The notes beneath the pieces are model-generated. The model had not been told where the DNA came from, ran no database searches, and saw nothing but the letters and a program-made list of their open reading frames with translations. A stretch of 64,000 nucleotides of DNA from Novosphingobium sp. (GTDB lineage Bacteria > Pseudomonadota > Alphaproteobacteria > Sphingomonadales > Sphingomonadaceae): assembly GCA_036384395.1 (NCBI GenBank), contig DASVMK010000098.1:93-64092 (forward strand), written 5' to 3'. This document shows positions 5,793 to 31,280 of this stretch, piece after piece. Position 1 is the stretch's first letter, and every line of letters begins with the position of its first letter. The translations under genes were made by a program, and so were the position numbers.

Positions 5793-5800
5793 AGAAGGGG

Positions 5801-5928: not shown

Positions 5929-5938
5929 AAACTCTTGT

Positions 5939-6934
5939 TCAGCCCACCAGCTCCCGCGCCACGGCGATCTCGGCGATGGTCCGCTGGCCCTCGTGGCGCT
6001 TGAGCTGCACGATCACGTCGATCAGCGAGGCGGCGTAGTCGATCGTTTCGTGGCGGGTGAGGCCGATCTGCGCCTGCATCGCCATCAGGCCGATCTGCTC
6101 CAATGCGCCGCGCGGGGAATTGGCGTGGACGGTGGAGAACGAGCCGGGATGGCCGGTGTTGATCGCGCGCAGGAACGAGACCGTCTCGCGTCCGCGCAAT
6201 TCGCCCAGCACGATGCGGTCGGGGCGCAGGCGCAGCGCCGCCTGGACGAGATCGTCGGGCGTCACTCGCGCTTCGCCGAGCTCCCCCTTGACCGCGACGA
6301 GGCCCAGCGCATTCGCCGTCGGCAGCTTGAGCTCGGGCGTGTCCTCGACCAGGATCACGCGCTCGCCGGGCGGAATCGCGCCGAGCATGGCGTTGAGGAA
6401 CGTGGTCTTGCCGGTCGAGGTGCCGCCGGCCACCAGGATCGTCTTCCGCCGCGCGATCGCCGCGCGCAAGTAGTCGAGCGGGCGGGCCAGCGGATCGGGC
6501 ATCGCCGCTTCGGCCTGGGGCCGGATCGGGCCGTTGTTCCAGGCATCGAGCGGCAGGTCGATCAGGCGGTGGCGGCGGATCGCCAGCGCCCAGTTGCGCC
6601 GCGTCGCCGGCGGGCCGACGAGCTGGATGCGCGCGCCGTCAGGTAGTGTCGCGGCCAGCAGCGGATGCTCGCGGTTGATGCCCTGGTGGCTCTGGCGCGC
6701 GACTTGCTCGGCCAGTCGTTGCAGCAGGGTATCGTCGATCTCGGGCAGCGCGACGCGCTGCATGGCGGGCGTGCCGGCCTCCTCGATCCACAGCTCGCCG
6801 GGGCGGTTGACGAGGATCTCGGTGACGCTTTCGCGCGCCAGGAACGGGCGGAACGGCGCCAGGTAGGCGTCGAGATAGACGCTGCGCGGCGCGGTGTCCG
6901 CCGCCGCCGGGAGCGCGCGCAGCTCGGCGCTCAC
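5939..6934 (-). CDS. virB11: P-type T4SS ATPase VirB11
   Basis: EILVNRPGE, Walker A GGTSTGKTT, VEDTPEL, LRLRPDRIVLGELRG, NTGHPGSFSTVHANS; GTG start overlaps the virB10 stop (GTGA). The longer tracked ORF is an upstream extension. Confidence 0.95.
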   Translation of the reverse strand: MSAELRALPAAADTAPRSVYLDAYLAPFRPFLARESVTEILVNRPGELWIEEAGTPAMQRVALPEIDDTLLQRLAEQVARQSHQGINREHPLLAATLPDGARIQLVGPPATRRNWALAIRRHRLIDLPLDAWNNGPIRPQAEAAMPDPLARPLDYLRAAIARRKTILVAGGTSTGKTTFLNAMLGAIPPGERVILVEDTPELKLPTANALGLVAVKGELGEARVTPDDLVQAALRLRPDRIVLGELRGRETVSFLRAINTGHPGSFSTVHANSPRGALEQIGLMAMQAQIGLTRHETIDYAASLIDVIVQLKRHEGQRTIAEIAVARELVG

Positions 6935-8034
6935 TCGCGTTCGACCTTCGAGAAGTCGAGATCGCGCGCGGTGAAGACGCGGATCGGCTCGCCCTGGCGG
7001 ACGCGGATCGTCGGGCCGATCTGTCCGCCCTGGCCGACCGCCGCCGCGGCCGCCGACTGGCCGCCGCCGCCGACGATCACATTGGCGCCGTTGCCGATCA
7101 GCGAGGGGATGCCGCCGATCACCGAGAGCAGCATCGACGAGCCGAAGCGCTCGAAGAAATGGCTGTCGACCTTGCCGGCGAGGCCGGTCTCGCCGGAGAA
7201 GGCGACGGCGGGGGAGGCGATGGCGACCGAGACGCCGTCGGGGCGGATCAGCCGCGTCCAGATCACGTAGGCGCGCTTCTGGCCCGAGGTCATGCCGCTC
7301 TTGTACTGGCCGATGAGCCGCGACGAGCGGGGGACGAGCACGCGGGTGCCGTCGAACGAGCGCACGTCGGCCGAGACGATGGCGCGGACGTAGCCGGGCA
7401 CGTCGGTGTCGATCGCGGTTTCCAGCACCGCCGGGATCAGCGTGCCCTGCGTCACCGTGGTGCGCGGATCGATCGCGCTGGCCGCACTGGCCGCGCCGCC
7501 GCCCACCCCGCCGAGCCGCGCGGCGAAATCGTCGTTGCCGTTGCCGGAGCCGCCCGGTGCCGCCGCCGGTCCGCCCAGCGCGATGGCGGGGGCGGACGCG
7601 GGAAGCGCGCTGGCGTCGAACACGATGGTCGGGCTGCTGTGTGGGTTGGCCCGCACGCCTGGCGCCATTTGCGGCGGCGCGGCGAGGACCGCCTGCTGTT
7701 GCGGCGCTGCGGGCGCGGTTCCGGGCGCGGGGGTGATCGCCTGTGGCGGCACCGCGGGCGGCAGCGCGACGGGCGGGGCGCCCACTTGCGTCGGCAAGGG
7801 CCCGCGCTTCTGCACGGTGCGGGCGTTGTCCATGCTCCACAGCGTCACCGCGCCGAGCAGGCCGACCACCGCGACCCCGGCGGCCAGGCCGAAGGCGTCG
7901 GAGCGCGGCTTGCGCGCCGCGACTTGCGGCAGGACGTTGCGCGTGGCGAGATCGATGATCTCCGCGCCTTGCGCATCGCGCGGATCGGCGTCGTTGGCGG
8001 CGAAGCGTTCGGACAGCTTGGTCGTGGGGCGCAT
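6931..8034 (-). CDS. virB10: TrbI/VirB10 T4SS core-complex protein
   Basis: N-terminal TM helix, Pro/Ala linker, QGTLIPAVLETAIDTDVPG, VPRSSRLIGQY, G..G.VDSHFFERFG, PTIRVRQGEPIRVFTARDLDF. Confidence 0.95.
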   Translation of the reverse strand: MRPTTKLSERFAANDADPRDAQGAEIIDLATRNVLPQVAARKPRSDAFGLAAGVAVVGLLGAVTLWSMDNARTVQKRGPLPTQVGAPPVALPPAVPPQAITPAPGTAPAAPQQQAVLAAPPQMAPGVRANPHSSPTIVFDASALPASAPAIALGGPAAAPGGSGNGNDDFAARLGGVGGGAASAASAIDPRTTVTQGTLIPAVLETAIDTDVPGYVRAIVSADVRSFDGTRVLVPRSSRLIGQYKSGMTSGQKRAYVIWTRLIRPDGVSVAIASPAVAFSGETGLAGKVDSHFFERFGSSMLLSVIGGIPSLIGNGANVIVGGGGQSAAAAAVGQGGQIGPTIRVRQGEPIRVFTARDLDFSKVERE

Positions 8035-13750: not shown

Positions 13751-13768
13751 GTGACGGCTCTGTGACAG
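13751..13768 (-). promoter_or_regulatory. Pho box upstream of virB1: CTGTCAC-AGAG-CCGTCAC
   Basis: Reverse complement of GTGACGGCTCTGTGACAG; two near-consensus PhoB heptamers at 11-bp spacing ending 35 bp before the virB1 ATG. Confidence 0.8.
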
Positions 13769-14299: not shown

Positions 14300-14371
14300 C
14301 GTTCTCCTGAATTCTGTTCTGACCCGGTCAGGCTATGACTCGCCTCCTGTTCGCGCAATGAAACTGTAACA

Positions 14372-14499
14372 TTGTCATAAAAATGAAACGTTGGCCTTCC
14401 GGCGGAGTCGGGTCCGTCAGCCAAGGTGTTGTCATAATTGTCATATTACAACCACAGAACACTATTCGAACTGTCATAGAACCGAAAACAAACTGTCAC
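14372..14499 (+). promoter_or_regulatory. Phased array of Pho-box half-sites upstream of the lipoprotein/TBDR operon
   Basis: TTGTCAT 14372, TTGTCAT 14438, CTGTCAT 14471, CTGTCAC 14493: offsets 66, 33 and 22 bp, all multiples of 11; an extra TTGTCAT at 14429. Confidence 0.75.
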
Positions 14500-14571
14500 C
14501 CCCTGCTCCTATTTGGCGAGTCGCGAGGGCGGTCCTGCCGTCGACGAAACTCACCATGAGGGGTACCTACC

Positions 14572-16167
14572 GTGAAAAAACCGCACAGCTTGATTATGGT
14601 CGCCTGCAGCGCGCTGGCGCTCGCCGGCTGCGGCGCCGACGACGTCGCGGCACCCGGCGGCCCGATCGTGATCCCGACGCCGTCGCCGTCGCCCTCTCCG
14701 ACCCCCACGCCCGGCGCGGGCTCGGTCACCGCGGCTGCTTCGTGCACCCCGGGCACTACCGACCTCGGCACCATTCAGCTCCAGGGCACCCGCGGCACCA
14801 TCCGCAACTGCGGTGTTCCGGCGCAGATCACCGGCACGCTTAACCTTACCGCGCGCCGCGCGGACGGCGTGATGTACTCGCTCAACGGCCGCACCGACGT
14901 GGGCCGTGACATCGATCTGGCCGGCGGGGCTGCGGCGACGCTCAACGTCTCGGCCGGCGTGACCGTCTTCGCGCAGACCCGCGAGACCTCGCTGATCGTC
15001 AACCGCGGTTCGCGCCTCAACGCCGACGGCAACGCCAACCAGCCGATCATCTTCACCGCGCTCGCCAACCTCACCGGCCAGGGCATGACCGAGGCCACCG
15101 ACAACCTCTGGGGCGGCCTGATCGTCAACGGCCGCGCGCCGGTCTCGGACTGTGACGCCACCGTCTCGTCCTCCACCGTGGGCGGCTCGGCCGGCTGCTG
15201 GCGCAAGGCCGAAGGCGTCGCCACCGACACGCTGTTCGGCGGCAACGTCGCCAACGACAATTCGGGCATCCTGCGCTACGTCCAGGTGAACTTCACCGGC
15301 GTCGGCGCGAACGCCAGCGAGATCCAGGGCATCACCACCGGCGGCGTCGGCTCGGGCACCGTGATGTCGCACATCCAGATCCACAACAGCCTGGACGACG
15401 GCATCGAATCGTTCGGCGGCACGCAGAACATGGATCACCTGGTGATGACCGGCATCGCCGACGACTCGCTGGACACCGACAACGGCTTCCGCGGCGCGGT
15501 GCAGTTCCTCCTGGCCGTGCGCCGGGCCAACGGCACGGTCGGCGATTCGGCCGGCAACCAGACGATGCTCGAGGTCGACAGCTCGGCGGTGAACGACGCG
15601 CAGCCGCGCCAGTACCTGCGCCTCGCCAACTTCACCTTCGTCCAGAACACGCCGAACGAGCCGGCCATCCGCCTGCGCGGCGGCGCCGACGTCGACCTGA
15701 TCAACGGCATCGTCATCGCCAAGAACACCGGCACCCGCCAGTGCTTCGACGTCGACGACGCGCAGACCGTTCAGGCGGCCGGCACCGGCGGCGCTGCGAA
15801 CGACGAGCGTGGCCCGCCGCGCCTGCTTTCGGTGGTGTTCGACTGCGGCACGCTGATTGATGCCGACGCCGACACCTTCGAGCAGGATACGCTGAGCAAC
15901 CCCGCCAACAGCGCGGTCAACCAGGCCTTCACCAACACGCTGGCGTTCCTGACGGGCTCCACCGTGGGCCAGGTCGCGCCCGGCACGAACGAGCTTGCCG
16001 TCGCCGGCGCGGCCAACCTGACCACGATCAGCTCGTTCTTCACCCAGGTCAACTACATCGGTGCCTTCAGCGGCCCCGGCGATACCTGGACCCAGGGTTG
16101 GACCTGCAACTCCGACGTCGCCAACTTGCGCGGCCTGACGAGCTGCACCGACATCCGCGTCTCGTAA
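14572..16167 (+). CDS. Uncharacterised lipoprotein with parallel beta-helix-like repeats, TBDR-associated
   Basis: GTG start, lipobox LAGC (Cys20), Pro/Thr linker, WGGLIVNGRAP, DNSGILRYV, GGVGSGT, DDGIESFGG, DDSLDTDNG; strongly C-ending codon bias. Confidence 0.8.
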   Translation: MKKPHSLIMVACSALALAGCGADDVAAPGGPIVIPTPSPSPSPTPTPGAGSVTAAASCTPGTTDLGTIQLQGTRGTIRNCGVPAQITGTLNLTARRADGVMYSLNGRTDVGRDIDLAGGAAATLNVSAGVTVFAQTRETSLIVNRGSRLNADGNANQPIIFTALANLTGQGMTEATDNLWGGLIVNGRAPVSDCDATVSSSTVGGSAGCWRKAEGVATDTLFGGNVANDNSGILRYVQVNFTGVGANASEIQGITTGGVGSGTVMSHIQIHNSLDDGIESFGGTQNMDHLVMTGIADDSLDTDNGFRGAVQFLLAVRRANGTVGDSAGNQTMLEVDSSAVNDAQPRQYLRLANFTFVQNTPNEPAIRLRGGADVDLINGIVIAKNTGTRQCFDVDDAQTVQAAGTGGAANDERGPPRLLSVVFDCGTLIDADADTFEQDTLSNPANSAVNQAFTNTLAFLTGSTVGQVAPGTNELAVAGAANLTTISSFFTQVNYIGAFSGPGDTWTQGWTCNSDVANLRGLTSCTDIRVS

Positions 16168-16185
16168 CTCTACTTTGCGTACTCC

Positions 16186-16212
16186 GGGGGAGCGGCCGTG
16201 CGCCCCTCCCCC
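16186..16212 (+). other. GGGGGAG...CTCCCCC stem-loop between the lipoprotein and TBDR genes
   Basis: 7-bp stem beginning 19 nt after the stop codon; the same stem recurs at 18967-18987. Confidence 0.5.
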
Positions 16213-16239
16213 CCTCTTCGTTCTCCTGGGGGACCACCA

Positions 16240-18948
16240 ATGACCCGTTCGCGCCTTTTCCTCGCTCTGTTGCTGGCTGGCACCGGGCTGACCAGCCACG
16301 CCGCGATGGCGCAAACCGAGCCGCAGCCGACGCCGCCCAGCGGTGCCGAAACGGCCACACCCGCACCGGCGGACCCGGCGCCCGCCGAGGAAGACGTGGA
16401 GGTGTCCGCTCCCGGCGCGGAGGGCGCCGAGATCGTCGTCACCGGCCGCTTCATTCCCGAGCCCGTCCGCAACACCGCGCAAGTGGTGAACGTGCTGTCG
16501 TCCGCCGAAATCGCGCGCACCGGCGACGGCGACATTTCGGGCGCGCTGCAGCGCGTGACCGGCCTGTCGGTCAACACCAATGGCTTCGTCTACGTTCGCG
16601 GTCTCGGTGATCGCTATTCGCTGGCGCTGCTCAACGGCCTGGCGCTCCCTTCGCCCGAACCGCTGCGGCGTGTGGTGCCGCTCGACGTGTTTCCGACCAG
16701 CATCGTCTCCAGCGCGCTCGTTCAGAAAAGCTATTCGGTCAACTACCCTGGCGAGTACGGCGGCGGCGTCATCAACCTCACCACCGCCTCGCTGCCCGAG
16801 GAGAACTACCTGACGCTCGGCACCGGCATCAGCATCGACACCGAGACCACCGCCCAGCTCGGCTACACCTATTACGGCAGCAAGCGCGACATCGTCGGCT
16901 ACGACGACGGCACCCGTCGCTTGCCCACCGCGCTGCGCAACAACAACGGCCAACTTGTCAGCGCCAACGTGCTGGAGAACGAGGATACGCTGATCGTCCA
17001 GCGCAACCATGACATCCCGGCCAACTTCAGCGCCTCGGCAAGCGCCGGCTACGCCACCGATTTCGGCGAGAGCCGCTTCGGCGTGCTCGCCAGCATGGGC
17101 TACTCGAACGGCTGGCGCACCCGCGGCGCCACGCAGCAGACCGCGCTGGCGGGCTCGCTGGTCAACAGCAGCTATGGCGTGCGGACCGAGAACCGCATCC
17201 AGGCCAACGCGCTGGTCAGCCTCGGCCTCGACCTGCCGCAGGGCCACAAACTGCGCTTCACCAACGTCTACATCCACGACACTTCGAAGGTCGCGCGCGT
17301 GCGCGGATCCTACGAGAACATTCAGACCCGCTTCGAGGACCTGGACGCCGGCCGCCTGACGGGCCCTTACGATTCGCTCAATTACGAGACGAACTACGTC
17401 CAGCGCCAGCTCATCACCTCGCAGCTCGTCGGCGAGTTCAAGTTCGGCGACTTCGACCTCGACTTGCGCGGCAGCTATTCGAACTCGCAACGCAAGTCGC
17501 CCTACGAGCGGACGACGCAGTACCGCTACGTCCCCGCGACCGAAGGCTATGCGATCCGCTTCGGCGCGCCGACGGGCGTTGTGTTCAGCGACCTGAACGA
17601 GGACGTGTGGGCCGGTGGCGCCGACCTCGCCTATGAATTCACGGGGCCGTTCACCGCCAAGCTCTCGGCGGGTTACGCCTACAGCGACACGAGCCGCCGT
17701 TTCGAAAGCCTGAACTTCGTCTACGACGACGGTGGCGCGCCGGTGGTGACCACGCCCAACGCCTACCTGCCGATCTACCAGCTTCTTTCGCCGGACTTCG
17801 TCGATTACGAAAACATCACGCTGCGCCAGGCCAACCGCGCGTTCGGCCAGGCGCTCTATCGCGGCGACCTGACCGTGCACGGCGGCTATGTGCGCGCCGA
17901 CATGGGCCTGGCCGAAGGGCTCAGGCTCGAGGCGGGCGTACGCTACGAGACCGCCAAGCAGACGCTGACGCTGCCCGACATCTACGGCAACAATCCGAAC
18001 GGCGCCGGCACGGCCGCAGTGATCGAGAAGAAGAACGACTACTGGTTGCCCGCCGCGACGATGACCTGGAACTTCGCCGAAGACTGGCAATTGCGCGTCC
18101 ACGGCTCCAAGACGATCGCCCGGCCGCAGTTCCGCGAGCTCGGCACGATCCCGGTGCTCGATCTGGAATCCGATCGCCTGCTGAGCGGCAACCCGTTCCT
18201 GACCGACAGCCAGCTCTACAACGCCGAGGTCCGCACCGAGTTCTATCCGGCGCGCGGAGAGCGGATCTCGCTGGCCGGCTTCTACAAGCGGATCGACAAG
18301 CCGATCGAATCGATCGCCACCGTCGACGCCTCGGGCCAGCTCCAGGTCAGCAACGCCAACGCGCCCAAGGCTGACCTTTACGGCGTCGAGGCGGAAGTGG
18401 TGAAGTACTTCGACCTCGCCGGCCTTGGCGGCGACTATTTCGCCACCCGCCGTCTGATGCTCTCGGCCAACTACACCTATAGCCAGTCGAAGCTGAAGGT
18501 GGCGGCCGGCGACACCACCGTGCTGTTCCCCGGCAATATCGACAGCCCGCTGATCGCCCCCGCAGGCCAGGTGTTCACAAACGGCAGCCCGCTGACCGGA
18601 CAGTCAAAGCACCTCGCCAACATCCAGTTCGGCATCGAGGATACCGAGACCTTGTCGCAGATCACCCTGCTGCTGACTTACGCCAGCAAGCGCGTGAGCT
18701 CGCGCGGGGCCAACAGCGGCGGCGTGGTCGATCCCGACATCGTCGAGAGGCCCGGCGTCAACCTCGACATCGTCGCGCGGCAGGCCATCGAGGTGGCCGG
18801 CATGCCGCCGCTCGAATTCAAAGTGGAGGGCCGCAACCTCCTCGGAACCGATTTCAGCGAGACGCAGCGCTATCCGGCCTACACGGTGCAGAACAACACT
18901 TACGACGTTGGCACCACCATCGCGGCCAGCATCTCGGCCAAGTTCTAA
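16240..18948 (+). CDS. TonB-dependent outer-membrane receptor
   Basis: Signal peptide, TonB box EIVVTG, plug motifs ALQRVTGLSV and VYVRGLGDRY...LNG, RVVPLDVFP, C-terminal ...SISAKF. Confidence 0.95.
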   Translation: MTRSRLFLALLLAGTGLTSHAAMAQTEPQPTPPSGAETATPAPADPAPAEEDVEVSAPGAEGAEIVVTGRFIPEPVRNTAQVVNVLSSAEIARTGDGDISGALQRVTGLSVNTNGFVYVRGLGDRYSLALLNGLALPSPEPLRRVVPLDVFPTSIVSSALVQKSYSVNYPGEYGGGVINLTTASLPEENYLTLGTGISIDTETTAQLGYTYYGSKRDIVGYDDGTRRLPTALRNNNGQLVSANVLENEDTLIVQRNHDIPANFSASASAGYATDFGESRFGVLASMGYSNGWRTRGATQQTALAGSLVNSSYGVRTENRIQANALVSLGLDLPQGHKLRFTNVYIHDTSKVARVRGSYENIQTRFEDLDAGRLTGPYDSLNYETNYVQRQLITSQLVGEFKFGDFDLDLRGSYSNSQRKSPYERTTQYRYVPATEGYAIRFGAPTGVVFSDLNEDVWAGGADLAYEFTGPFTAKLSAGYAYSDTSRRFESLNFVYDDGGAPVVTTPNAYLPIYQLLSPDFVDYENITLRQANRAFGQALYRGDLTVHGGYVRADMGLAEGLRLEAGVRYETAKQTLTLPDIYGNNPNGAGTAAVIEKKNDYWLPAATMTWNFAEDWQLRVHGSKTIARPQFRELGTIPVLDLESDRLLSGNPFLTDSQLYNAEVRTEFYPARGERISLAGFYKRIDKPIESIATVDASGQLQVSNANAPKADLYGVEAEVVKYFDLAGLGGDYFATRRLMLSANYTYSQSKLKVAAGDTTVLFPGNIDSPLIAPAGQVFTNGSPLTGQSKHLANIQFGIEDTETLSQITLLLTYASKRVSSRGANSGGVVDPDIVERPGVNLDIVARQAIEVAGMPPLEFKVEGRNLLGTDFSETQRYPAYTVQNNTYDVGTTIAASISAKF

Positions 18949-19183: not shown

Positions 19184-19858
19184 TCAAGGCTGGTCGAGCA
19201 CGTATCCCAGCGAACGCACCGTGCGCAGCGGATCGCCGGCGCCGGCGGTGCGCAGCGCGCGGCGCAGGCGGCCGATCCAGACATCGACCGTGCGTTCGTC
19301 GACCGGCGGGTCCTGCTTGCCGAGCGCGGCGATGAGCTGGCCGCGGGTGAACACCCGGCCGGGATGCTCGACCAGGTAGCGCAGCAGGCGGAACTCGTTG
19401 GGCATCAGCGGGATCGCCTTGCCGCGCCAGCGCGCCTGGAAGGCGGCGAGATCGATGCTGAGCTCGCCGAGCGCGAGGTTGCGCGCGGGCGCGCCGTCGT
19501 GGTCGTGCGGCCGGGCCGAGAGCACCCGGTCGAGCAGCGCGGTGCGGGTGGCGGGTCCGACCATGTAGTCGTCCGCCCCGGCGCGCAGCGCACGGCGGCG
19601 GGCGTCCTGGTCGTCCTCCTCCAGCATCATCGTGATGTGCGCCTGCGCGGTCAGCGGATCGCAGCGCAGCCGGCGGCAGATCTCGAGCCCTGAGATCTCG
19701 GGCAGCACCCAGTCGACGAAGGCCCAGAGCGTGCCTTCGAGCAGCGGCAGCTCGCTGGGCCGCGCCCAGCGATGGAACAGCACTTCGAGCTCGCCGTGGA
19801 CGAACGGCGCGGTTCCCCCCTCGAGCTCGCCGGTCAGCAGTATGTCGACGCGGTGCAT
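19184..19858 (-). CDS. PhoB-like OmpR-family regulator with atypical (pseudo-)receiver domain
   Basis: FVDWVLPEISGLEICRRLR and GADDY resemble PhoB; DNA-binding domain ERTVDVWIGRLRRAL...LRTVRSLGY; GGAG RBS before ATG 19858. Confidence 0.85.
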   Translation of the reverse strand: MHRVDILLTGELEGGTAPFVHGELEVLFHRWARPSELPLLEGTLWAFVDWVLPEISGLEICRRLRCDPLTAQAHITMMLEEDDQDARRRALRAGADDYMVGPATRTALLDRVLSARPHDHDGAPARNLALGELSIDLAAFQARWRGKAIPLMPNEFRLLRYLVEHPGRVFTRGQLIAALGKQDPPVDERTVDVWIGRLRRALRTAGAGDPLRTVRSLGYVLDQP

Positions 19859-19901
19859 GGAACTCCGGCCCTGTGTTGCGGAAGGACCCTGCCGCCGCCG
19901 T

Positions 19902-19941
19902 GTGACGCGCAAATGACGGTTCGGCGACAGTTCGGTGAAAT
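19902..19941 (-). promoter_or_regulatory. Four-unit Pho-box array upstream of the phoB-like gene
   Basis: Minus strand ATTTCAC-CGAA-CTGTCGC-CGAA-CCGTCAT-TTGC-GCGTCAC with exact 11-bp period. Confidence 0.8.
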
Positions 19942-19953
19942 CGCGGCGCTCGC

Positions 19954-19982
19954 CTGTCACCGAACTGACCCCGATCCGTCAC
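19954..19982 (+). promoter_or_regulatory. Three-unit Pho-box array upstream of plcP-agt
   Basis: CTGTCAC-CGAA-CTGACCC-CGAT-CCGTCAC with exact 11-bp period. Confidence 0.8.
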
Positions 19983-20033
19983 CACCCCGCAACCGCGCCG
20001 GATTAAAAGGAGGCGAAACCGGCAAAGGTGACA

Positions 20034-20933
20034 ATGATGATCTTCGATGACGCGGACCTGCTGCCCCGCAAGCCGGGTGGCGTTCCTCCCCTGGGCAAGA
20101 TCCCCGAATGGCTCGACCTGCCAGACCCCAAGGGCTTCCGTCCCAAGCGCAAGTACCGCACGGTGTGGATTTCCGACGTCCACCTCGGCACGCGCGGCTG
20201 CAACGCGGCGCTGCTCGTGGATTTCCTGCGCTCGATCGAGTGCCAGACGCTCTACCTGGTCGGCGACATCGTCGACGGCTGGCGGCTGCGCAAAGGCTGG
20301 TACTGGCCCGACGCCCACAACGAGGTGGTCCGCCGCCTGCTCAAGATGGCGCATCGCGGCACCCGCGTGGTCTTCGTCGCGGGCAATCACGACGAGATGC
20401 TGCGCGACTATGCCGGGCTGACCTTCGGCGGGGTCGAGCTGGTGCTCGAAGCGGTGCACGAGACCGCCGACGGTCGCCGCCTGCTGGTGACTCACGGCGA
20501 CAGCTTCGACGGCGTGGTGCTCTACGCCAAGTGGCTCGCGTTCCTGGGCGACAAGGCCTACGGGCTGCTGCTGCGCGCCAACATCCTGTTCAACGCCGTG
20601 CGACGGCGGCTGAAGATGCCGTACTGGTCGCTCTCCGCGCACCTCAAGCGCAAGGTCAAGAACGCCGTCCAGTACGTCTGCAGCTTCGAGGAGGCGGTGG
20701 CGCGCGAGGCGCTCGAGCGCGGCTTCGACGGCATCGTCTGCGGCCACATCCACTGCGCCGAGATTCGCGCGATCGGCGACATCACCTATTACAACGACGG
20801 CGACTGGGTCGAAAGCTGCACCGCGCTGGCCGAAGAGGCCGATGGCGCGATGCACATCGTCGACTGGGCGCAGGAAGTGGCGGCCGAGGCGGCGGCGAAC
20901 GCGCCCACCCAGCCGCTGGAGACGGTGGCATGA
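20034..20933 (+). CDS. plcP: PlcP-type phospholipase C (LpxH-like metallophosphoesterase)
   Basis: SDVHLG, GDIVD, GNHD (His, not the Arg of LpxH GNRD), THGD, CGHIH, YYNDGDWVESCT; coupled to a GT4 gene; Pho box upstream. An alternative GTG start lies at 20028. Confidence 0.85.
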   Translation: MMIFDDADLLPRKPGGVPPLGKIPEWLDLPDPKGFRPKRKYRTVWISDVHLGTRGCNAALLVDFLRSIECQTLYLVGDIVDGWRLRKGWYWPDAHNEVVRRLLKMAHRGTRVVFVAGNHDEMLRDYAGLTFGGVELVLEAVHETADGRRLLVTHGDSFDGVVLYAKWLAFLGDKAYGLLLRANILFNAVRRRLKMPYWSLSAHLKRKVKNAVQYVCSFEEAVAREALERGFDGIVCGHIHCAEIRAIGDITYYNDGDWVESCTALAEEADGAMHIVDWAQEVAAEAAANAPTQPLETVA

Positions 20934-22033
20934 GCGCGCCTATTCGCATCGCTATCGCCACCGACGCCTGGTTTCCGCAGGTCAACGGCGTCGTCCGCAC
21001 GCTGGCGGCCACCGTCGCGGTGCTCGACCGGCAGGGCTACGAGGTCGAACTGATCACGCCCGAGCGCTTCCTCACCGTGCCGATGCCCGGCTATTCGGCG
21101 ATCCGCCTGGCGCTGGCCCCGCGCTTCGCCGCGCGGCGGATGCTCGACCACTATCGCCCCGACATCGTCCACATCGCCACCGAAGGGCCGATCGGCTGGA
21201 GCGCGCGCGGTTGGTGCCTGGCGCGCGGGGTGCCGTTCACCACCGCGTTCCACACACGCTTTCCCGACTATGCGGCGGTCCGCACCGGCATCAGTGCCGA
21301 GCGCTTCTGGCCGATCATGCGCCGCTTCCATGCCCCCAGCCGCGCGGTGCTCGTCGCTACGCGCAGTCTGGAGCTGGAACTGCGCGGGCGCGGCTTCGAG
21401 CGAATCCGGCCCTGGAGCCGGGGCATCGACAACTGGGTCTTCCGTGCCGACGGCGACGCCCATCCCGATCTCGTCCATCTGCCGCGCCCGTTGCTGCTCA
21501 ACGTCGGCCGCGTCGCGCCCGAGAAGAACCTCGAGGCGTTCTTGCAGGCCGAGACGCCCGGCACCAAGGTCGTCGTCGGCGAAGGCCCTGCGCTTGGCGA
21601 CCTGCGCGCGCGCTATCCCGATGTGATGTTCATGGGCGCGCTGGCGGGCGAGGAGCTCGCCGCCGCCTATCGCAGCGCCGACTGTTTCGTGTTCCCCAGC
21701 CTTACCGACACCTTCGGGCTGGTGGTGATCGAGGCACTGTCGTGCGGCGTGCCGGTGGCCGCCTATCCGGTGCCCGGTCCGATCGACATCCTGGGTCCCG
21801 ATGGCTGCGGCGTCGATGGCGAGCAGGCCCGGGCGGCGGGCGCGGTCGATGAAGACCTTGCCGCCGCGATCGCCCGCGCGCTGAGGCTGCGCCGCGCCGA
21901 CGCCATCGCGCTGGCGCGCAACTACACCTGGGAACGCGCGACCGACCACTTCCTCGCGGCGATCCGCTCGGCGCTGGATGGAGCGGCGGAGCCGGTGGCG
22001 GCGCGCTCGGAGGCCGAGCTGGAGGCGGCCTGA
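20930..22033 (+). CDS. GT4 glycosyltransferase, Agt-like glycolipid (glucosyl/glucuronosyl-DAG) synthase
   Basis: RIAIATDAWFPQVNGVVRTL, VHIATEGPIG, VGRVAPEKN, FVFPSLTDTFGLVVIEALSCGVPV; ATGA overlap with plcP. Confidence 0.85.
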   Translation: MSAPIRIAIATDAWFPQVNGVVRTLAATVAVLDRQGYEVELITPERFLTVPMPGYSAIRLALAPRFAARRMLDHYRPDIVHIATEGPIGWSARGWCLARGVPFTTAFHTRFPDYAAVRTGISAERFWPIMRRFHAPSRAVLVATRSLELELRGRGFERIRPWSRGIDNWVFRADGDAHPDLVHLPRPLLLNVGRVAPEKNLEAFLQAETPGTKVVVGEGPALGDLRARYPDVMFMGALAGEELAAAYRSADCFVFPSLTDTFGLVVIEALSCGVPVAAYPVPGPIDILGPDGCGVDGEQARAAGAVDEDLAAAIARALRLRRADAIALARNYTWERATDHFLAAIRSALDGAAEPVAARSEAELEAA

Positions 22034-25319: not shown

Positions 25320-26778
25320 GCGACTGGTCCTTGTCGGTGTGAGTGTCTTGCGAGATGCCCGCGAAGCCGCCACCGAGCGCGCGGATCAGCGCGATGTCGG
25401 CGCTGCGCGCGGCCGCCTCCAGGCTCGCGGCGGCGAGGCGCGCGGCCAGCAGGCGGTCCTCGACTGCGAGCACGTCGAGATAGTTGGAAAGCCCCGCTCG
25501 GTAGCGGCCTTGCGCGATGGTATAGGCATCTTGCGAGGCGGCGACCGCGGCGCGTGCGTCGGCGAGCCGCTGGGCGATCATGGTCACCCCGGTGACCGCG
25601 TCGGCGGCGTCCTGATAGGCGGTGACCACCGCCTGGTCGTAAGCGGCGACGGCGAGGTCGTAATCGGCGCGCGCGCCGCGATAGCGGCCGCGCCGGGCGC
25701 CGGCGTCGAAGATCGGCAGGTCGATCGCCGGGCCGGCGCTGCCGTAGAGCGAGTCCTTGGCGATCAGGTTGTCGAACCCGAAGGCCTGGACCCCGACCAG
25801 CGCGCTCAGACGGATCGACGGGAAGAAGTCGGCGCGCGCCACCCTGATGCGCCGCGCCGCCGCCTCGACCCGCTCGCGCGCGGCGACGATGTCGGGACGG
25901 CGCGCGATCAGCGCGGTGGTCGTGCCTTCGGGCACGCCGGCAAGGCGCGCGGCGGGCAAAGCGGGGCGGGCGATGGCCAGCCCGCGGTCGGGGCCGGCGC
26001 CCATCAGCGCGGCGATCTGGTGCTGGCGGACGGCGATCGCCTGCTCGGTCTCGCCCAATGCGGCGCGCGCGGTCGCGGCCTCGGCATCGGCCTGGCGCAA
26101 GCTGCCGCGCGTCTCCAGCCCGTTGATCTGGCGGTCGCCCACCAGCTTGCGCGAGGCGTTGCGCACCTCGAGCGCGGCCAGGCGCACGTCGCGTTCGTCG
26201 TAGAGGCGGGCGAGGTCGGCGTAAGACGAGGCGATGCCGGTCGCCAGCGTCGTCCGGGCCTGCGCGAGATCGAGCGCTGCCGCGCGCTCTTCGGACGTCG
26301 CGGCGGCGAGCGCGGCGCGGTTCTTGCCCCAGAGATCGAGATCGAAGGCGAGCGTGCCCGCGACTTGCGCGCTTTCCTGCCAGCCGTGCGGGAGGAACGG
26401 CTTGAACGTGTCGGGGAAACCCAGGTTGAGGCTCTGCCGGTCGTAGCCGGCGCGCCCTTGCGCATCGAGCGTCGGCAGCGTCGCCGCGCCGGCCTGTTGG
26501 GTCAGCCCGCGCGCGCGCTGCAGCCGCGCGGCGGCGGCGGCGACGTCGGGCGCGCCTTGCAGCGCCTCCTCGATCAACGCCGAGAGCTGCGCGTCGCCAT
26601 AGTCGGTCCACCAGCGATCTCCGGGCCACGCCGCGCCGGGCGCGGGCGCCAGACTGCGGGTCGCCGCGACGCTTTCGGGCGTGCGCGGGATCGGCTTGGG
26701 GCCCAGGTCGGGAGGCGTGACGCAGCCGGCCAGCAGGAGAAAGCCGAGGGGGACCGCGAATCGAGAGTGTCTGGTCAT
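25312..26778 (-). CDS. NodT/TolC-family outer-membrane efflux lipoprotein
   Basis: Lipobox LAGC, WW..YGDAQLSALIEEAL, FDLDLWGK, RRPDIVAA, P.FDAG. Confidence 0.93.
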   Translation of the reverse strand: MTRHSRFAVPLGFLLLAGCVTPPDLGPKPIPRTPESVAATRSLAPAPGAAWPGDRWWTDYGDAQLSALIEEALQGAPDVAAAAARLQRARGLTQQAGAATLPTLDAQGRAGYDRQSLNLGFPDTFKPFLPHGWQESAQVAGTLAFDLDLWGKNRAALAAATSEERAAALDLAQARTTLATGIASSYADLARLYDERDVRLAALEVRNASRKLVGDRQINGLETRGSLRQADAEAATARAALGETEQAIAVRQHQIAALMGAGPDRGLAIARPALPAARLAGVPEGTTTALIARRPDIVAARERVEAAARRIRVARADFFPSIRLSALVGVQAFGFDNLIAKDSLYGSAGPAIDLPIFDAGARRGRYRGARADYDLAVAAYDQAVVTAYQDAADAVTGVTMIAQRLADARAAVAASQDAYTIAQGRYRAGLSNYLDVLAVEDRLLAARLAAASLEAAARSADIALIRALGGGFAGISQDTHTDKDQSHG

Positions 26779-26784
26779 AGAAAA

Positions 26785-26866
26785 CCGTACCACTTGGTAT
26801 GGAATGCTAGGGGATGTGGGCGCACCCCATCCGCTTGTCAACCCGGTATCGTACTATATAGTATGG
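26785..26866. promoter_or_regulatory. Two TetR-type operators YCGTAC-N6-GTATGG
   Basis: CCGTAC-CACTTG-GTATGG (26785-26802) and TCGTAC-TATATA-GTATGG (26849-26866), each beside one of the divergent starts. Confidence 0.7.
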
Positions 26867-26871
26867 TAACG

Positions 26872-27510
26872 ATGTCCGTGGAGTCTCCCACCCCCGCCAG
26901 CCGCAGAGAGGCCCGGCGTTTGTCGCGCCGCGACACGATCCTCGATGTCGCCGGCCCCTATTTCCTCGAACATGGGTACGGCGGCACGACGATGTCGGCG
27001 GTCGCCGCCGCGCTGGGCGGGTCCAAGGGAACGCTGTGGAGCTATTTTCCGTCCAAGGAGATGTTGTTCGCAGCCGTGATCGAACGGGCGAGCGAATCGT
27101 TCCGCGCGCAGATCGCCGCGATCCTGCGGCCGGACAAGGCGCTCGACGTCGCGCTGCACGACGTCTGCTGCGAACAGTTGCGCAAGGTGACCTCGCCCGA
27201 TGCGATCGCGCTGCACCGGCTCGTCGCGGGCGCGGCCGGGCGTTTCCCGGAAGTCGGGCGGATCTTCTACGAGAACGCGCCGCGGCTGACGCAGCGACTG
27301 ATCGCCGATTATCTGGAGCAGGCGATGGCGCGCGGATTGCTGCGCCGGGCCGATCCGCTGCGCGCCGCCCAGCATCTCCATGCGCTGTGCATGTCGCGCA
27401 GCTATCAGCAGCATCTCCTCGGTGTGATCGACGACGTCACGCCCGAGATGATCGAGGCCGATGTCGCCAGCGCGCTCGAGACGTTCGTGTCCGGCTATGG
27501 CTCCTCCTAG
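26872..27510 (+). CDS. TetR/AcrR family transcriptional regulator
   Basis: HTH GYGGTTMSAVAAALGGSKGTLWSYFPSKEMLF; divergent from the efflux operon. Confidence 0.93.
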   Translation: MSVESPTPASRREARRLSRRDTILDVAGPYFLEHGYGGTTMSAVAAALGGSKGTLWSYFPSKEMLFAAVIERASESFRAQIAAILRPDKALDVALHDVCCEQLRKVTSPDAIALHRLVAGAAGRFPEVGRIFYENAPRLTQRLIADYLEQAMARGLLRRADPLRAAQHLHALCMSRSYQQHLLGVIDDVTPEMIEADVASALETFVSGYGSS

Positions 27511-27523
27511 GCGAGTGGGCGTT

Positions 27524-28024
27524 GTGAGCTTTCCCGAGCGCTACGACACTCCGGTGCTGCGCGTCCGCATCGCGCTGATCGCCGAGAGCTTCGCGCGGCT
27601 GCTTGGTCGTCCGCTGGTCGCGCCCGGTTGTGATGCGGTCGAAGCGCTGTGGATCGCGCCCGAGGCCATCGTCGCGCATGGCACCGGGGCCGATCCCGCG
27701 TTCTTCTTCGCCAACCGCGTCGCGCTGGCGGCGTTCGACGCCGATCTCGACCGCTTCCTCGGCATGCCCTCGCGGCTCTCGGCCGAAGCCTCCGCGCGCG
27801 GCGAGCGCCAGGCGCTGCTCGACCGTGTGACCCGCGACGGCTTCATCGCCGACTATGCGGGGGTGCGCGTGACCTTGGACGGGCGGCGTTTCCGCATCGC
27901 CGATGCGACGGTGTGGAACCTGATCGATGCGGATGGGCAGGCGCACGGCCAGGCCGCCGCCTTCGCGCCGCCGCTGAAGGACGCCCGGCGGGCCGAGGTC
28001 TCGCGGGCGGTAGGAAAGCTGTAG
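27524..28024 (+). CDS. Stand-alone MEKHLA (PAS-like) domain protein
   Basis: HGTGADPAFFFAN..AL..F...PSRLSAE..ER..LL.RV..DGFI.DY.GVR....GRRF.I..ATVWNLID; start uncertain. Confidence 0.8.
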   Translation: MSFPERYDTPVLRVRIALIAESFARLLGRPLVAPGCDAVEALWIAPEAIVAHGTGADPAFFFANRVALAAFDADLDRFLGMPSRLSAEASARGERQALLDRVTRDGFIADYAGVRVTLDGRRFRIADATVWNLIDADGQAHGQAAAFAPPLKDARRAEVSRAVGKL

Positions 28025-28025
28025 G

Positions 28026-29438
28026 TTACCCCAGCGGCAGCACCAGCTCGGCGCGCAGGCCCGCGACCGAACCGTCGGCGCGGTGGCGGTTGGTCAGGCG
28101 CAGCTCGCCGCCGTGCTGCTCGGCGATCGCGCGGGCGAGCGCGAGGCCGAGGCCGGCGCCGCCGGTTTCGGTATTGCGCGAGGGTTCCCCGCGGGTGAAC
28201 GGATCGAGCATCCGCCCCATCGCCGATTCCGGGATGCCAGGCCCCTCGTCGTCGATACGGATCGTCGCCCGGCTGCGCTCGCGCGACAGCGAGACGTCGG
28301 CCGTCCCGCCATAGCGCAGCGCGTTGCCGATCAGGTTGCGCAGCGCGCGGCGCAGCCAGGTGGCGCGCAGCGGCAGGACCATCCGTTGGGTGTCCCCCAG
28401 GCGGACGTTCTCGCCCATGTCCTCGTATTCCTCGACCACGGCGGCGACGAGCGCGGAAAGCTCGAACGGCTCGCATGGATCGCTCGGGCGGCCGACGCGG
28501 GCGAGCGAGAGGATGTCGTCGAGCGTGTGGACGATGTCCTCGATGGTCGCGGCCATGCGCCTGCGCTCGCTCTCGTCCTCGACCGTCTCGATGCGGACGC
28601 GCAGCGCCGCGAGCGGGGTCTTGAGATCGTGGCCGATGGCGCCGAGCATCACGTCCTTCTCGTCCAGCAGGGCCGAGATGCGGTCTTCCATCGCGTTGTG
28701 CGCGATCATCAGCCGGCGCACGTCGTCGGGCCCTTGCGGATCGAGCCGCCCCGCCGGATCGCGCGTCTCGGCGAAGCGCTCGACGCGGTCGGTCAGCGCC
28801 GCGAGCGGGCGGGTGATCCGCCGCAGGATGAAGGCGATGGCGCCGACGACGACGAGGTAGAGGAACAGCGTCTGCGCCACCAGCGTGCGGACCACGAGCG
28901 ATTCGTTGGTTGGCTCCATCACCCGCGCCACCAGCCATTCCGACTGGTCCGGGCGGCGCACCACGGCAAGCAGCACGCCGCCGTCGCTGCGCCGGACCCG
29001 CCGCTTCATGATCCGCGCCTCCCATTCGAAGCGCCGTATCGTGAAGGGATCCGCCTCGGCCTCGCGACGCACGACGATCAGCGCGTCGGTGGCGAAGTCC
29101 TGATCGCTCAGCACTTCGCGCAGCCGCTGCTCGATCTTGGGGTCGCGCTCGTCGGCGGGCTGGATGGGATCGACGGCGGTGCGTTCCGGGGTGAACGTGC
29201 GCGGCACCTCGGGAAAGCGGGTGCCGATCGGATCGGGCTCGCGCGAGGGGATATGGTTGGTGCGCGTCACCGACAGCAGGCGGAAGGCGAGCGCGTGGGC
29301 CAGCACGATGTCGCGCCGTTCGGCCTGCGCGCGATAGACCAGCAGCGCGCTGAAGCCTTGCGCCAGCAGCAACGCGATCGCCACGGCCATCAGCATCTGG
29401 CCCTTGAGGCTGCGCGGCCAGAACCGGCAGGTCACCAC
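28026..29438 (-). CDS. Sensor histidine kinase (HAMP, HisKA, HATPase)
   Basis: Two TM helices, AIGHDLKTPL (H box), NLIGNALRYG, DDEGPGI, GAGLGLA; GTG start uncertain (29438 or 29435). Confidence 0.92.
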   Translation of the reverse strand: MVTCRFWPRSLKGQMLMAVAIALLLAQGFSALLVYRAQAERRDIVLAHALAFRLLSVTRTNHIPSREPDPIGTRFPEVPRTFTPERTAVDPIQPADERDPKIEQRLREVLSDQDFATDALIVVRREAEADPFTIRRFEWEARIMKRRVRRSDGGVLLAVVRRPDQSEWLVARVMEPTNESLVVRTLVAQTLFLYLVVVGAIAFILRRITRPLAALTDRVERFAETRDPAGRLDPQGPDDVRRLMIAHNAMEDRISALLDEKDVMLGAIGHDLKTPLAALRVRIETVEDESERRRMAATIEDIVHTLDDILSLARVGRPSDPCEPFELSALVAAVVEEYEDMGENVRLGDTQRMVLPLRATWLRRALRNLIGNALRYGGTADVSLSRERSRATIRIDDEGPGIPESAMGRMLDPFTRGEPSRNTETGGAGLGLALARAIAEQHGGELRLTNRHRADGSVAGLRAELVLPLG

Positions 29439-29445
29439 CGGCGGC

Positions 29446-30168
29446 TCATCCCCGTACGCGCCGCACGTCGGCGGCCAGCATGTAGCCGCCACCCCAGACG
29501 GTCTGGATCAGTTGCGGGCTGCGGCTGTCGACCTCGATCTTGCGGCGCAGACGGCTGACCTGGTTATCGACCGCGCGGTCGAACAAGTGCGCCTCGCGGC
29601 CCTGGACCATGTCGAGCAGCCGATCGCGGTCGAGCACCTGGCGCGGGTGATCGAGGAAGGCGACGAGCAAGCGGAACTCGACCGAGGAGATGACGACGAC
29701 GGCGCCCTCCTGGTCGGTCAGCCGGCGCTTGAGCGGATCGAGCCGCCAGCCCTCGAACTCGTAGAGCTCGTTTTCGCCGGCTTGCCCGGCGACGCGCGCC
29801 GAGCGGCGCAGCACGCTGCGGATGCGCGCGACGAGCTCGCGCGGCTCGAACGGCTTGACGACATAGTCGTCCGCGCCGATCTCCAGCCCGACGATACGGT
29901 CGGTCGCCTCGCCCCGCGCGGTCAGGAAGATCACCGGGATCGCCCGCGCCTCGACAACGTGGCGGCACAGCGAGATGCCGTCCTCGCCGGGCATCATGAT
30001 GTCGAGCAGGAGGAGGTCGGGGGGGGCGTCGCGCAGCAGCGTGCGGGCCTGGGCGGCCGAGGACGCCTGGCTTACGCAAAACCCTTGGCGCGAGAGATAG
30101 TCGGCCAGGGGGGCGCGCAAGGCCGCCTCGTCGTCGACCAGCAGCAGTTTGATCGGATCGTCGTTCAT
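29446..30168 (-). CDS. OmpR-family response regulator
   Basis: LLVDDE, LLDIMMPG, FLTARG, GADDYVVKPF, DRAVDNQVSRLRRKIE, TVWGGGY. Confidence 0.95.
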   Translation of the reverse strand: MNDDPIKLLLVDDEAALRAPLADYLSRQGFCVSQASSAAQARTLLRDAPPDLLLLDIMMPGEDGISLCRHVVEARAIPVIFLTARGEATDRIVGLEIGADDYVVKPFEPRELVARIRSVLRRSARVAGQAGENELYEFEGWRLDPLKRRLTDQEGAVVVISSVEFRLLVAFLDHPRQVLDRDRLLDMVQGREAHLFDRAVDNQVSRLRRKIEVDSRSPQLIQTVWGGGYMLAADVRRVRG

Positions 30169-30674
30169 CCGGGCGACGGTTGCCCTGCCGGGCCGCGGCG
30201 CGGCGTCTGCCGCGGCGCCCGCGCGCGGCGCTCGGCGGGGGTGAGGCGGCCGTCCTTGTTGGCGTCGGCGGCGTCGAACCGGCGGAGCGCGACGGCGATG
30301 TACTCGGCCTGGGTCACGCCGCCGCTAGGACCGGCGGCGGCGCCGGCCGGCGCGCCGGGACGCGGGCGCGCGGCTTGCTTGGCGGGGCCGCCATCCTTGG
30401 CCGCATTGGTGCCGGCGGCGGTGAATTCGCTGCGCGAGAGCTGGCCGTCGTGATCGGTGTCGAGCCGGTCGAACAGTTCGGCGCGGCGGGCGTCGCGGTC
30501 GGCGCCGTCCAGCTTGCCATCCTTGTTGACGTCGAGCTGGTCGAACATCCGCGTCGCCACCGCCTGGGCCTGGTCGCGGGTGAGATCGCCGGCGGCGTCC
30601 TCCCGCTTTTCGAGGGCGTAAGCGGATCCGGCGGCGAGCGTCGCCAGCAAAAGACCGATCAGCGCGTGCCGCAT
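30165..30674 (-). CDS. Secreted EF-hand domain protein
   Basis: Signal peptide; loops DVNKDGKLDGAD, DTDHDGQLSRSE, DANKDGRLTPAE; stop overlaps the RR start. Confidence 0.85.
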   Translation of the reverse strand: MRHALIGLLLATLAAGSAYALEKREDAAGDLTRDQAQAVATRMFDQLDVNKDGKLDGADRDARRAELFDRLDTDHDGQLSRSEFTAAGTNAAKDGGPAKQAARPRPGAPAGAAAGPSGGVTQAEYIAVALRRFDAADANKDGRLTPAERRARAPRQTPRRGPAGQPSPG

Positions 30675-30795
30675 GGGCCGTCCTCCTGAAATGAGAAAAC
30701 CGGGCGGCGCGGGGGAGGGGAAGGGGGTGCGCCACCCGGTTTCCATTGCGGAGATATCCCCTTCCTGTCGCGCCATTGTGCCGCGTTCCCCCTCA

Positions 30796-30814
30796 ATTGT
30801 CGCAATTTGTCGCA
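30796..30814 (-). promoter_or_regulatory. Direct repeat TTGTCGCAA x2 (10-bp period), candidate autoregulatory site of the adjacent OmpR-type RR
   Basis: TTGTCGCAA at 30796 and 30806, with weaker copies at 30765 and 30776, upstream of the EF-hand/RR/HK operon. Confidence 0.5.
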
Positions 30815-30858
30815 AACGGGAAGAGGCGTTCATCGCATCGCAACCTCACCCTCGCCGA

Positions 30859-31257
30859 TTAGCGCGGACGATGCTCGGTGCCGAAGCCGGCGGTGATGAA
30901 CAAACAGGTGGCCTGGTCCACGACATCGGCGGTGTGCCAGACCCCCGGCGGGTTGATCGCGTACTCGCCTGCCTGCAGCGTGACGACACGCGGCTCGCTG
31001 CCATCGACCTCCTGCACCAGCCGGATCTCGCCCGAGACGCAGACCACGACCTCGTCGCCCGCCGGGTGGCGTTCCCAGGCGTCCCACGGCGCGGAGAAGC
31101 TGTAGAGGCTGACCAGTCGCCCCTCGGTGCCGTCGGCGGTCGTGCGCCGGCCGTATTCCTCGTACCAGTCGATGCCGGTGAAGGCGGGCTGCGATCCCGC
31201 GGTGCCGCCCAGGCCGAGGTGGATCGGATGCTCGGCGAGGCGCAAGGGTCCGGTCAT
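30859..31257 (-). CDS. Cupin domain protein
   Basis: WERHPAGDEVVVCVSG and INPPGVWHTA cupin motifs. Confidence 0.85.
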   Translation of the reverse strand: MTGPLRLAEHPIHLGLGGTAGSQPAFTGIDWYEEYGRRTTADGTEGRLVSLYSFSAPWDAWERHPAGDEVVVCVSGEIRLVQEVDGSEPRVVTLQAGEYAINPPGVWHTADVVDQATCLFITAGFGTEHRPR

Positions 31258-31280
31258 CGCGGGTCTCCTCGGGTCAGGGG

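Follow-up and report, generated by a model that had tools for sequence, protein, structure and literature searches.

The question raised by the locus described here is what role a bacterium could have for a PhoB-type response regulator whose receiver has lost most of its active site and whose gene lies behind Pho boxes, in a genome that also encodes a genuine PhoB. The gene ("X", P0001) encodes 224 amino acids and lies within 64,000 nucleotides of Novosphingobium sp. DNA (assembly GCA_036384395.1, contig DASVMK010000098.1, positions 93 to 64,092); this whole stretch is called the window below, and coordinates refer to it unless another contig is named. Sequence comparison indicates that the regulator is descended from PhoB. 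Our preferred reading, to which we assign a probability of roughly 55%, is that it is an orphan, PhoB-derived pseudo-receiver regulator that is induced by PhoB, acts as a phosphorylation-free dimer on Pho-box-like sites and modulates neighbouring Pho operons. As such it is probably a second-tier regulator of the phosphate starvation response. The features on which the argument turns are as follows.

19184-19858, minus strand: PhoB-derived atypical response regulator gene, 224 amino acids (open reading frame and translation, Pfam, orthologues)
19514-19858, minus strand: pseudo-receiver domain, residues 1-115 (alignments, AlphaFold model)
19187-19468, minus strand: winged-helix DNA-binding domain, residues 131-224 (Pfam PF00486, Foldseek, alignment)

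The gene starts at the ATG at 19858, which has a GGAG 7 nt upstream and is equivalent to the first codon of all orthologues, and it ends with the stop codon at 19184-19186. A longer frame beginning at the GTG at 19960 would cross the promoter boxes. A preliminary description of this stretch had placed the element at 19184-19941. The lower end of that span is right, but 19941 marks the far end of the array of Pho boxes, and the span is unfit as that of a gene because its length is not a multiple of 3. All of the motifs quoted in that description (VDILLTGE, FVDWVLP, HITMMLEED, DDYMVGP, ERTVDVWIGRLRRAL and RTVRSLGY) are present in the minus-strand translation of 19184-19858. The protein belongs to the OmpR/PhoB family, with its receiver and winged helix: both Pfam domains exceed their gathering scores, Trans_reg_C (PF00486) with 77.5 bits (cut-off 26.2) over residues 146-221 and Response_reg (PF00072) marginally, with 33.0 bits (cut-off 30.2) over residues 47-112 only, and the fold matches returned by Foldseek are exclusively regulators of this family. 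Among NCBIfam models, PhoB (TIGR02154) is the best match and CreB, with 96.9 bits, the second best. The match to PhoB reaches 148.7 bits against a cut-off of 296.2, and only residues 47-222 align; by this full-length score the regulator is not a PhoB equivalog.

The genuine PhoB of this genome was found by a search of the whole assembly. It scores 314.3 bits, above the TIGR02154 cut-off, and is encoded on another contig, directly after phoU; the contig end cuts the gene at about residue 214.

Contig C192 (G000), 25784-33085: genuine Pho locus with phoR, a perfect Pho box (27148-27165), pst genes, phoU and phoB

The perfect Pho box, CTGTCATAACACTGTCAT, adjoins the best PhoR candidate, which is encoded 5 kb upstream of this phoB. 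The preliminary description had made its proposal depend on the regulator gene not being the only phoB in the genome, and with a separate PhoB and a PhoR candidate on C192 it is not. The regulator gene itself is not partnered with phoR or pst-phoU and lies between a TonB receptor gene and plcP. That it encodes a paralogue of PhoB, as had been proposed, is borne out both by the NCBIfam ranking and by a maximum-likelihood tree, in which the regulator clade is monophyletic (100/100) and attaches among PhoBs, while eight other OmpR-type regulators of the genome fall across a branch with 91/88 support. The stem of the clade amounts to 2.36 changes per column, and the placement of so long a stem is uncertain. 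In 20 of the 80 Novosphingobium loci, pstB-phoU-phoB lies 2.3-5 kb from the regulator gene, an arrangement that fits an origin by local duplication; we infer that the regulator arose from phoB in this way.

The receiver was described beforehand as crippled, and alignment with the genome's own PhoB confirms this. The phospho-acceptor Asp49 (FVDW, codon 19712-19714) is retained. Leu79 (HITMMLEE) aligns with the conserved Thr of IIMLTA in PhoB, Gly101 (DDYMVGP) aligns with the conserved Lys of DDYLTKP, and the beta1 acidic pair is gone, ILLTGE standing against LLVEDD ("TGE" for "EDD"). Thus of the acidic pair, Asp, Thr/Ser and Lys that make up an intact PhoB active site, only the Asp remains. A pseudo-receiver is defined as a receiver that lacks any one of five active-site residues, and the protein that carries it as an atypical response regulator (Bourret and colleagues, PMC12632262). 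In the regulator the Thr and the Lys are gone, as are one or both residues of the acidic pair, and by this definition it is a pseudo-receiver protein; since Asp49 is present, it lies outside the aspartate-less receiver (ALR) subset.

The changes are shared by the family. Across 12 diverse orthologues Asp49, Trp50 and Leu79 are invariant and Gly101 is about 90% conserved, and more distant members all have Leu where the Thr would be and Gly, Glu or Ala where the Lys would be. In a divergent orthologue (L145, G034:C1:2227300-2229000) the receiver Asp is replaced by Glu (IFIEWLL / FIEW) and the upstream Pho box is kept; this lineage speaks against phosphorylation of the Asp being necessary. The mean pairwise identity among 21 orthologues differs by region:

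Residues 1-46, N-terminal part: 45%
Residues 47-115, receiver core: 75%
Residues 116-130, linker: 26%
Residues 131-224, DNA-binding domain: 70%

Because Leu79 is invariant and receiver residues are conserved among orthologues, the sequences indicate that the degenerate receiver is a fixed, selected state rather than one of decay.

The N-terminal 46 residues appear to have been rebuilt around the invariant anchors F19, H21, F28, G42 and W45. A first alignment suggested a deletion of 13 residues at alpha1, which was rejected when a second alignment gave small gaps only; as the two alignments differ, this part is not reliably alignable and a structure model was used instead. The AlphaFold2 model was built from 44 orthologues and has a mean pLDDT of 81.5 (83-86 over residues 1-30). 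Before beta3 it contains strands at residues 2-8, 19-21 and 24-30 and zero helices, and from beta3 onward a normal alpha3, beta4, alpha4, beta5 and alpha5, followed by a normal winged helix. Helices alpha1 and alpha2 are thus predicted to be absent from the receiver. The docking of histidine kinases on response regulators, and its specificity, depend chiefly on the surface of alpha1. With the catalytic residues lost and alpha1 predicted absent, it appears that PhoR or acetyl phosphate could hardly switch the regulator. A possible His/Asp metal site formed by the invariant H21, H74 and D49 was considered and dropped; H74 is the beginning of beta4 and thus distant from the end that bears the active site.

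The best-conserved part of the protein is the alpha4-beta5-alpha5 face, the dimer surface of the OmpR/PhoB family, and in the same 12 orthologues R88, R89, L91, D96, Y98, R105, L109, D110 and R111 are invariant there. In PhoB the Asp-Arg pair D101/R115 is needed for dimer-dependent activity (PMC4511772); by alignment it is retained in the regulator as D97/R111. Other charges of the face differ from those of PhoB, with Glu replaced by Arg after "GL", Glu replaced by Ala, and a new Asp before Arg. From the missing catalytic residues, the alpha1 helix predicted to be absent and the conservation of this face we infer that the regulator acts independently of phosphorylation.

In Foldseek, the fit of the DNA-binding domain to the effector domain of PhoB (1gxq) has an rmsd of 1.3 A. 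From residue 48 to 209 the regulator aligns with the genome's own PhoB without gaps and is 43% identical to it. Its recognition helix is RTVDVWIGRLRR and its wing RTVRSLGY. The preliminary description had the domain closely mimicking PhoB; the shared features of helix and wing bear this out, but the mimicry is not exclusive, since among solved structures GlnR scores slightly higher and the RTVDV...RLR helix is more widely shared. The loop that contacts RNA polymerase in PhoB reads LGKQDPPVDERT here against WGTESEIELRT in PhoB, with Leu for Trp and one extra residue. Across the regulator family this loop, LGKQ[ED]PP[IV]DERT, is nearly invariant, yet unlike that of PhoB. The Trp of the loop is needed for activation by E. 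coli PhoB.

Upstream of the gene, the Pho-type units are arranged as follows.

19902-19941, minus strand: four 11-bp Pho-type units facing the regulator gene, 44-83 bp from its ATG, equal to two Pho boxes
19941-19935: Pho unit 1, ATTTCAC
19930-19924: Pho unit 2, CTGTCGC
19919-19913: Pho unit 3, CCGTCAT
19908-19902: Pho unit 4, GCGTCAC

The four-unit array had been placed exactly in the preliminary description, but only its two proximal units are conserved in relatives, and we take these (19902-19919) as the conserved Pho box. A two-unit box of this kind occurs on the coding strand about 45-110 bp upstream of 101 of 104 orthologues (20 of 20 family-level, 77 of 80 Novosphingobium and 4 of 4 divergent orthologous loci); in Novosphingobium it lies mostly at -61/-50, and many of these boxes have a third unit. 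Two copies of the pattern GTCAY-N6-GTCAY are present in the 64-kb window, where 0.19 would be expected; one is in this array and the second lies ahead of virB. Genome-wide (2.85 Mb) only 21 sites score at least 12/14, three of them in the island around the regulator gene. From these numbers the boxes do not appear to be due to chance. A search upstream of the regulator gene for a consensus sigma-70 promoter found none, and the Pho box occupies the place expected for the -35 element; a Pho box without a sigma-70 consensus fits an activator-dependent promoter.

A second array faces the opposite way.

19954-19982, plus strand: three 11-bp units (CTGTCAC, CTGACCC, CCGTCAC) facing plcP

The outer cores of this opposite-strand array, with a spacing of 22 bp, are seen again in the Novosphingobium loci in which plcP is divergent from the regulator gene. 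The intergenic boxes listed in the preliminary description are thus split between two divergent promoters.

The regulator is far from unique to this genome. Hundreds of orthologues of about 224 amino acids, 73-100% identical to it, are present in a large protein database, named "response regulator transcription factor [Novosphingobium]" or, by a JGI mis-call, PhoB. A full-length orthologue is carried by about 40 of 151 genomes of the same GTDB family, and at least one more has a divergent copy that falls below the threshold. Exact look-ups gave as hosts Novosphingobium, Croceicoccus, Erythrobacter, Qipengyuania, Altererythrobacter, Altericroceibacterium, Alteripontixanthobacter, Parerythrobacter and Candidatus Andeanibacterium. 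When a family profile was run against 400 class-wide genomes, orthologues scored 367-388 bits and everything else at most 174 bits; outside the family it matched only canonical PhoBs, from about position 43 on. In the searches made, the distribution is limited to Novosphingobium and Erythrobacteraceae, where the regulator is kept in more than 100 genomes and adjoins phosphate-scavenging genes. In one uncultured relative a second, divergent copy of the DNA-binding domain, 61% identical, lies directly upstream of the orthologue (L064:5078-5380, minus strand). A literature search found no paper on the regulator protein.

The genes around the regulator gene in the window include the following.

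14572-18948, plus strand: 531-amino-acid lipoprotein and TonB-dependent receptor, convergent with the regulator gene (Pfam)
20028-20933, plus strand: plcP-like metallophosphoesterase, divergent from the regulator gene (Metallophos 46.2 bits, weak LpxH-type matches)
20930-22033, plus strand: GT4 glycosyltransferase (agt-like), its start overlapping the plcP stop (ATGA, 20930-20933)

The receptor-lipoprotein pair adjoins the regulator gene in 18 of the 20 family-level loci, and the two are 3.5-4.5 kb apart in every compared genome that has both. Beyond the pair come a small TPR gene and then a virB (type IV secretion) operon, a layout seen in 18/20 loci. About 50 of the 80 Novosphingobium loci, but none of the 20 loci from other genera, have plcP-agt in divergent orientation to the regulator gene, and these genes were rejected as functional partners since they are adjacent only within Novosphingobium (0/20 family-level loci). 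No conserved upstream partner or kinase could be recognized either, the largest cluster of neighbours covering 6 of 20 loci. A histidine kinase linked to the regulator gene was found in none of the genomes examined. In the window, as noted beforehand, no kinase is adjacent: the neighbours are the TonB-dependent receptor and PlcP, and the nearest histidine kinase is about 8 kb off, beside its own regulator. This two-component pair (28026-30168, minus strand; a HAMP-HisKA-HATPase kinase and an OmpR-type regulator with 211.7 bits to the PhoB model) appears to be unrelated to the regulator. In a Novosphingobium subgroup (N. nitrogenifigens and others; L100 and L104, ~5100-7560) the usual neighbours are lost, and the regulator gene, still with its Pho box, is flanked on the same strand by genes for a MIP-family channel and for a GT2 glycosyltransferase.

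The Pho box ahead of virB, CTGTCACAGAGCCGTCAC (13751-13768, minus strand), is a strong one and lies 35 bp before a virB1-like SLT gene. Its core, GTCAC-N6-GTCAT, is found in the same place in 17 of 17 relatives with the regulator gene. The promoter region of the lipoprotein-receptor pair (14300-14571) is AT-rich and has three blocks common to relatives: a distal block ATGTCAT-A-ATGTCAT-N4-CTGTAAC, a middle block with copies of TGTCAT 9 bp apart, and a proximal block TGCAAAGAAACTGTCAC followed by ccTAG. These 8-9-bp offsets are unlike simple 11-bp Pho boxes. The lipoprotein start at 14572 is GTG (VK/VT...) in all lineages in which the gene lies beside virB and ATG where virB is not nearby (L020-L038 vs L124-L143), which points to two subfamilies of the lipoprotein-receptor pair.

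Our preferred reading joins these observations into a short pathway. During phosphate starvation, phosphorylated PhoB (PhoB~P) would turn on the regulator gene through the conserved Pho box. The product would then dimerise through its alpha4-beta5-alpha5 face without being phosphorylated and bind Pho-box-like direct repeats; as neither step would need phosphorylation, its activity would be set by its abundance. In this way it would modulate some operons of the Pho regulon, most probably those of the lipoprotein-TonB receptor pair and virB and, in Novosphingobium, plcP-agt. We favour a positive role, that of a feed-forward activator, because the polymerase-contact-type loop is nearly invariant in the family. 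The analysis establishes how the sequence has changed, that this state is conserved, the Pho box, the synteny and the existence of a genuine PhoB; which DNA the regulator binds, whether it activates or represses and how it oligomerises are proposals.

Several observations weigh against this pathway. The upstream Pho box could equally serve autoregulation by the regulator itself. Since almost every member keeps the Asp, residual phosphorylation is possible, and the absence of alpha1 and alpha2 depends on one model with a shallow alignment (66-100% identity). The recognition helix departs from that of PhoB at two positions (His to Trp and Arg to Gly), and among solved structures the isolated DNA-binding domain matches actinomycete GlnR with 58.7 bits and E. 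coli PhoB with 52; a site specificity identical to that of PhoB is for these reasons an assumption. A link of the regulator gene to the island is suggested by virB4, an orthologue of which occurs in 35 of the roughly 40 genomes that carry the gene and in 17 of the roughly 110 that lack it, but neither these counts nor those of synteny are corrected for shared ancestry. Finally, at least five genomes hold virB, the TPR gene, the lipoprotein and the receptor without the regulator gene, and in 3 of these 5 the virB Pho box is kept. The gene is thus an accessory and is not required for the module. The earlier suggestion that the regulator is dedicated to this island accordingly stands as a matter of synteny only: the partner is the receptor/lipoprotein/virB block rather than plcP-agt, and that block also occurs alone.

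A further, rather unlikely, possibility is that the regulator acts as a phosphorylation-independent copy built by PhoB, which would sustain expression of a costly uptake and secretion island (lipoprotein, TonB receptor, virB and lipid remodelling) once PhoB~P is gone. If true, this would provide a memory of starvation, or a commitment step, whose length is set by dilution of the protein and not by a kinase, and the copy would be loaded at the additional heptamers, offset by 8-9 bp, that the lipoprotein promoter has in genomes with the regulator gene.

The regulator might also be a brake: induced by PhoB, it would occupy Pho boxes without activating, and its competition would damp or end the Pho response. 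Its PhoB-type DNA-binding features and its control by the same Pho box are as expected of such a protein, as is the alteration of the loop at the very point where PhoB contacts RNA polymerase. That altered loop, however, is almost invariant in the family, which would be unexpected if it had no partner, and no sign of repression was seen; we consider a brake unlikely and prefer the feed-forward activator.

Somewhat more remote is the idea that the regulator and PhoB~P form heterodimers by way of the alpha4-beta5-alpha5 face and that PhoB~P is thereby redirected to some promoters of its regulon only. The exceptional conservation of this face and the retained Asp-Arg pair are in keeping with heterodimers, but the changed charges of the interface are explained no less well by a homodimer that is rewired and insulated from PhoB. 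Same-strand heptamers in the lipoprotein promoter are more numerous in genomes with the regulator gene (mean 4.5) than in those without it (2.4; p = 7e-5, phylogeny ignored), a comparison confounded by lineage and AT content. A suspected composite site, TGCAA-N6-TGTCA, is found in 13 of 19 lipoprotein promoters of genomes with the regulator gene and in 2 of 20 without it. It also occurs in a genome (L151) that has the module and lacks the regulator gene, and the TGCAA half-site was for this reason rejected as a target of the regulator's own; TGTAAC stands at the same position in gene-less genomes, and TGCAA thus appears to be a lineage variant of the upstream half-site.

A sensing role for the N-terminal part is a long shot. 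A metabolite or partner tied to the substrate of the TonB receptor would act on this part of the protein and couple substrate supply to expression of the island. The rebuilt first 46 residues with their invariant anchors and the close linkage of the gene to a transporter are compatible with this, and pseudo-receivers that bind ligands or are otherwise modified are known (PMC12632262), but no ligand-binding motif was recognized in the regulator. Least credible is an ordinary but inefficient response regulator, phosphorylated at Asp49 by PhoR or an unlinked kinase: the Asp is nearly always present and substitutions of the acidic pair, Thr or Lys sometimes still allow phosphorylation (PMC12632262), but here three classes of catalytic residue are missing together, the kinase-docking helix is predicted to be absent, one lineage has Glu for the Asp, and no genome examined has a linked kinase.

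What turns pseudo-receiver regulators on and off is recognised as an open question (PMC12632262). For this question the family described here offers a clean natural case, in which the parent (PhoB), the inducing signal (phosphate starvation) and the candidate sites (Pho boxes) are all known and cultured hosts exist in Novosphingobium, Erythrobacter and Croceicoccus. The regulator of our preferred reading would also illustrate how a nutrient response run by one regulator gains a second tier. In addition, the label "PhoB" that pipelines attach to it can mislead reconstructions of the Pho regulon in sphingomonads.

Among known systems the closest is PhoB itself (TIGR02154; E. coli structures 1gxp, 1gxq and 3t72), which provides the best family model and the nearest branch of the tree and shares the link to Pho boxes. 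The two have in common DW..P..SG.E.CRRLR (beta3-alpha3), GADDY, the recognition helix RTVDV...RLR and the wing TVR..GY. Unlike PhoB, the regulator reaches only half the cut-off score, is without the acidic pair, Thr and Lys and, by prediction, without alpha1 and alpha2, does not lie beside pst-phoU or phoR in its host, has Trp and Gly for His and Arg in the recognition helix, and has an altered polymerase-contact loop. Actinomycete GlnR is likewise an orphan, atypical OmpR/PhoB-family regulator whose pseudo-receiver has kept its Asp, and it is the best solved match to the DNA-binding domain alone. As cited in PMC12632262, the Asp of GlnR is structural, within a constitutive alpha4-beta5-alpha5 homodimer. 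GlnR differs in being a master regulator of nitrogen rather than a paralogue of a resident master, in its full five-helix receiver and in its unrelated regulon. HP1043 (HsrA) of Helicobacter pylori and ChxR of Chlamydia trachomatis also have degenerate receivers and bind direct repeats as dimers without phosphorylation (PMC3960148, PMC8345958). They belong to the OmpR/PhoB family, and HP1043 (2hqr) is among the fold-search matches to the regulator; unlike it, they are essential or global regulators of reduced genomes, are not induced by a canonical paralogue and have no sequence affinity to PhoB.

Two other systems are instructive for the circuit rather than the protein. CmrT of Clostridioides difficile has no phospho-acceptor and acts through its abundance. 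With CmrR it makes up the co-regulated OmpR-family pair of the atypical cmrRST system, as described in PMC12548384, and this circuit may resemble the one proposed here. The Cmr regulators differ in sharing one operon, in targeting phase-variable morphology and motility, and in not being a duplicate of PhoB. In Streptomyces the atypical regulator WhiI redirects another, BldM, by forming a heterodimer with it (PMC4125116), a precedent for pairing with PhoB~P; both of these proteins are atypical regulators of the NarL/FixJ type and serve a developmental programme, and the heterodimer considered here is hypothetical. By analogy, we propose that the regulator works as GlnR, HP1043 and ChxR do. Two of its features may be unusual beside these systems, namely its descent from the resident master regulator under whose box it lies and a receiver predicted to be without two of its helices.

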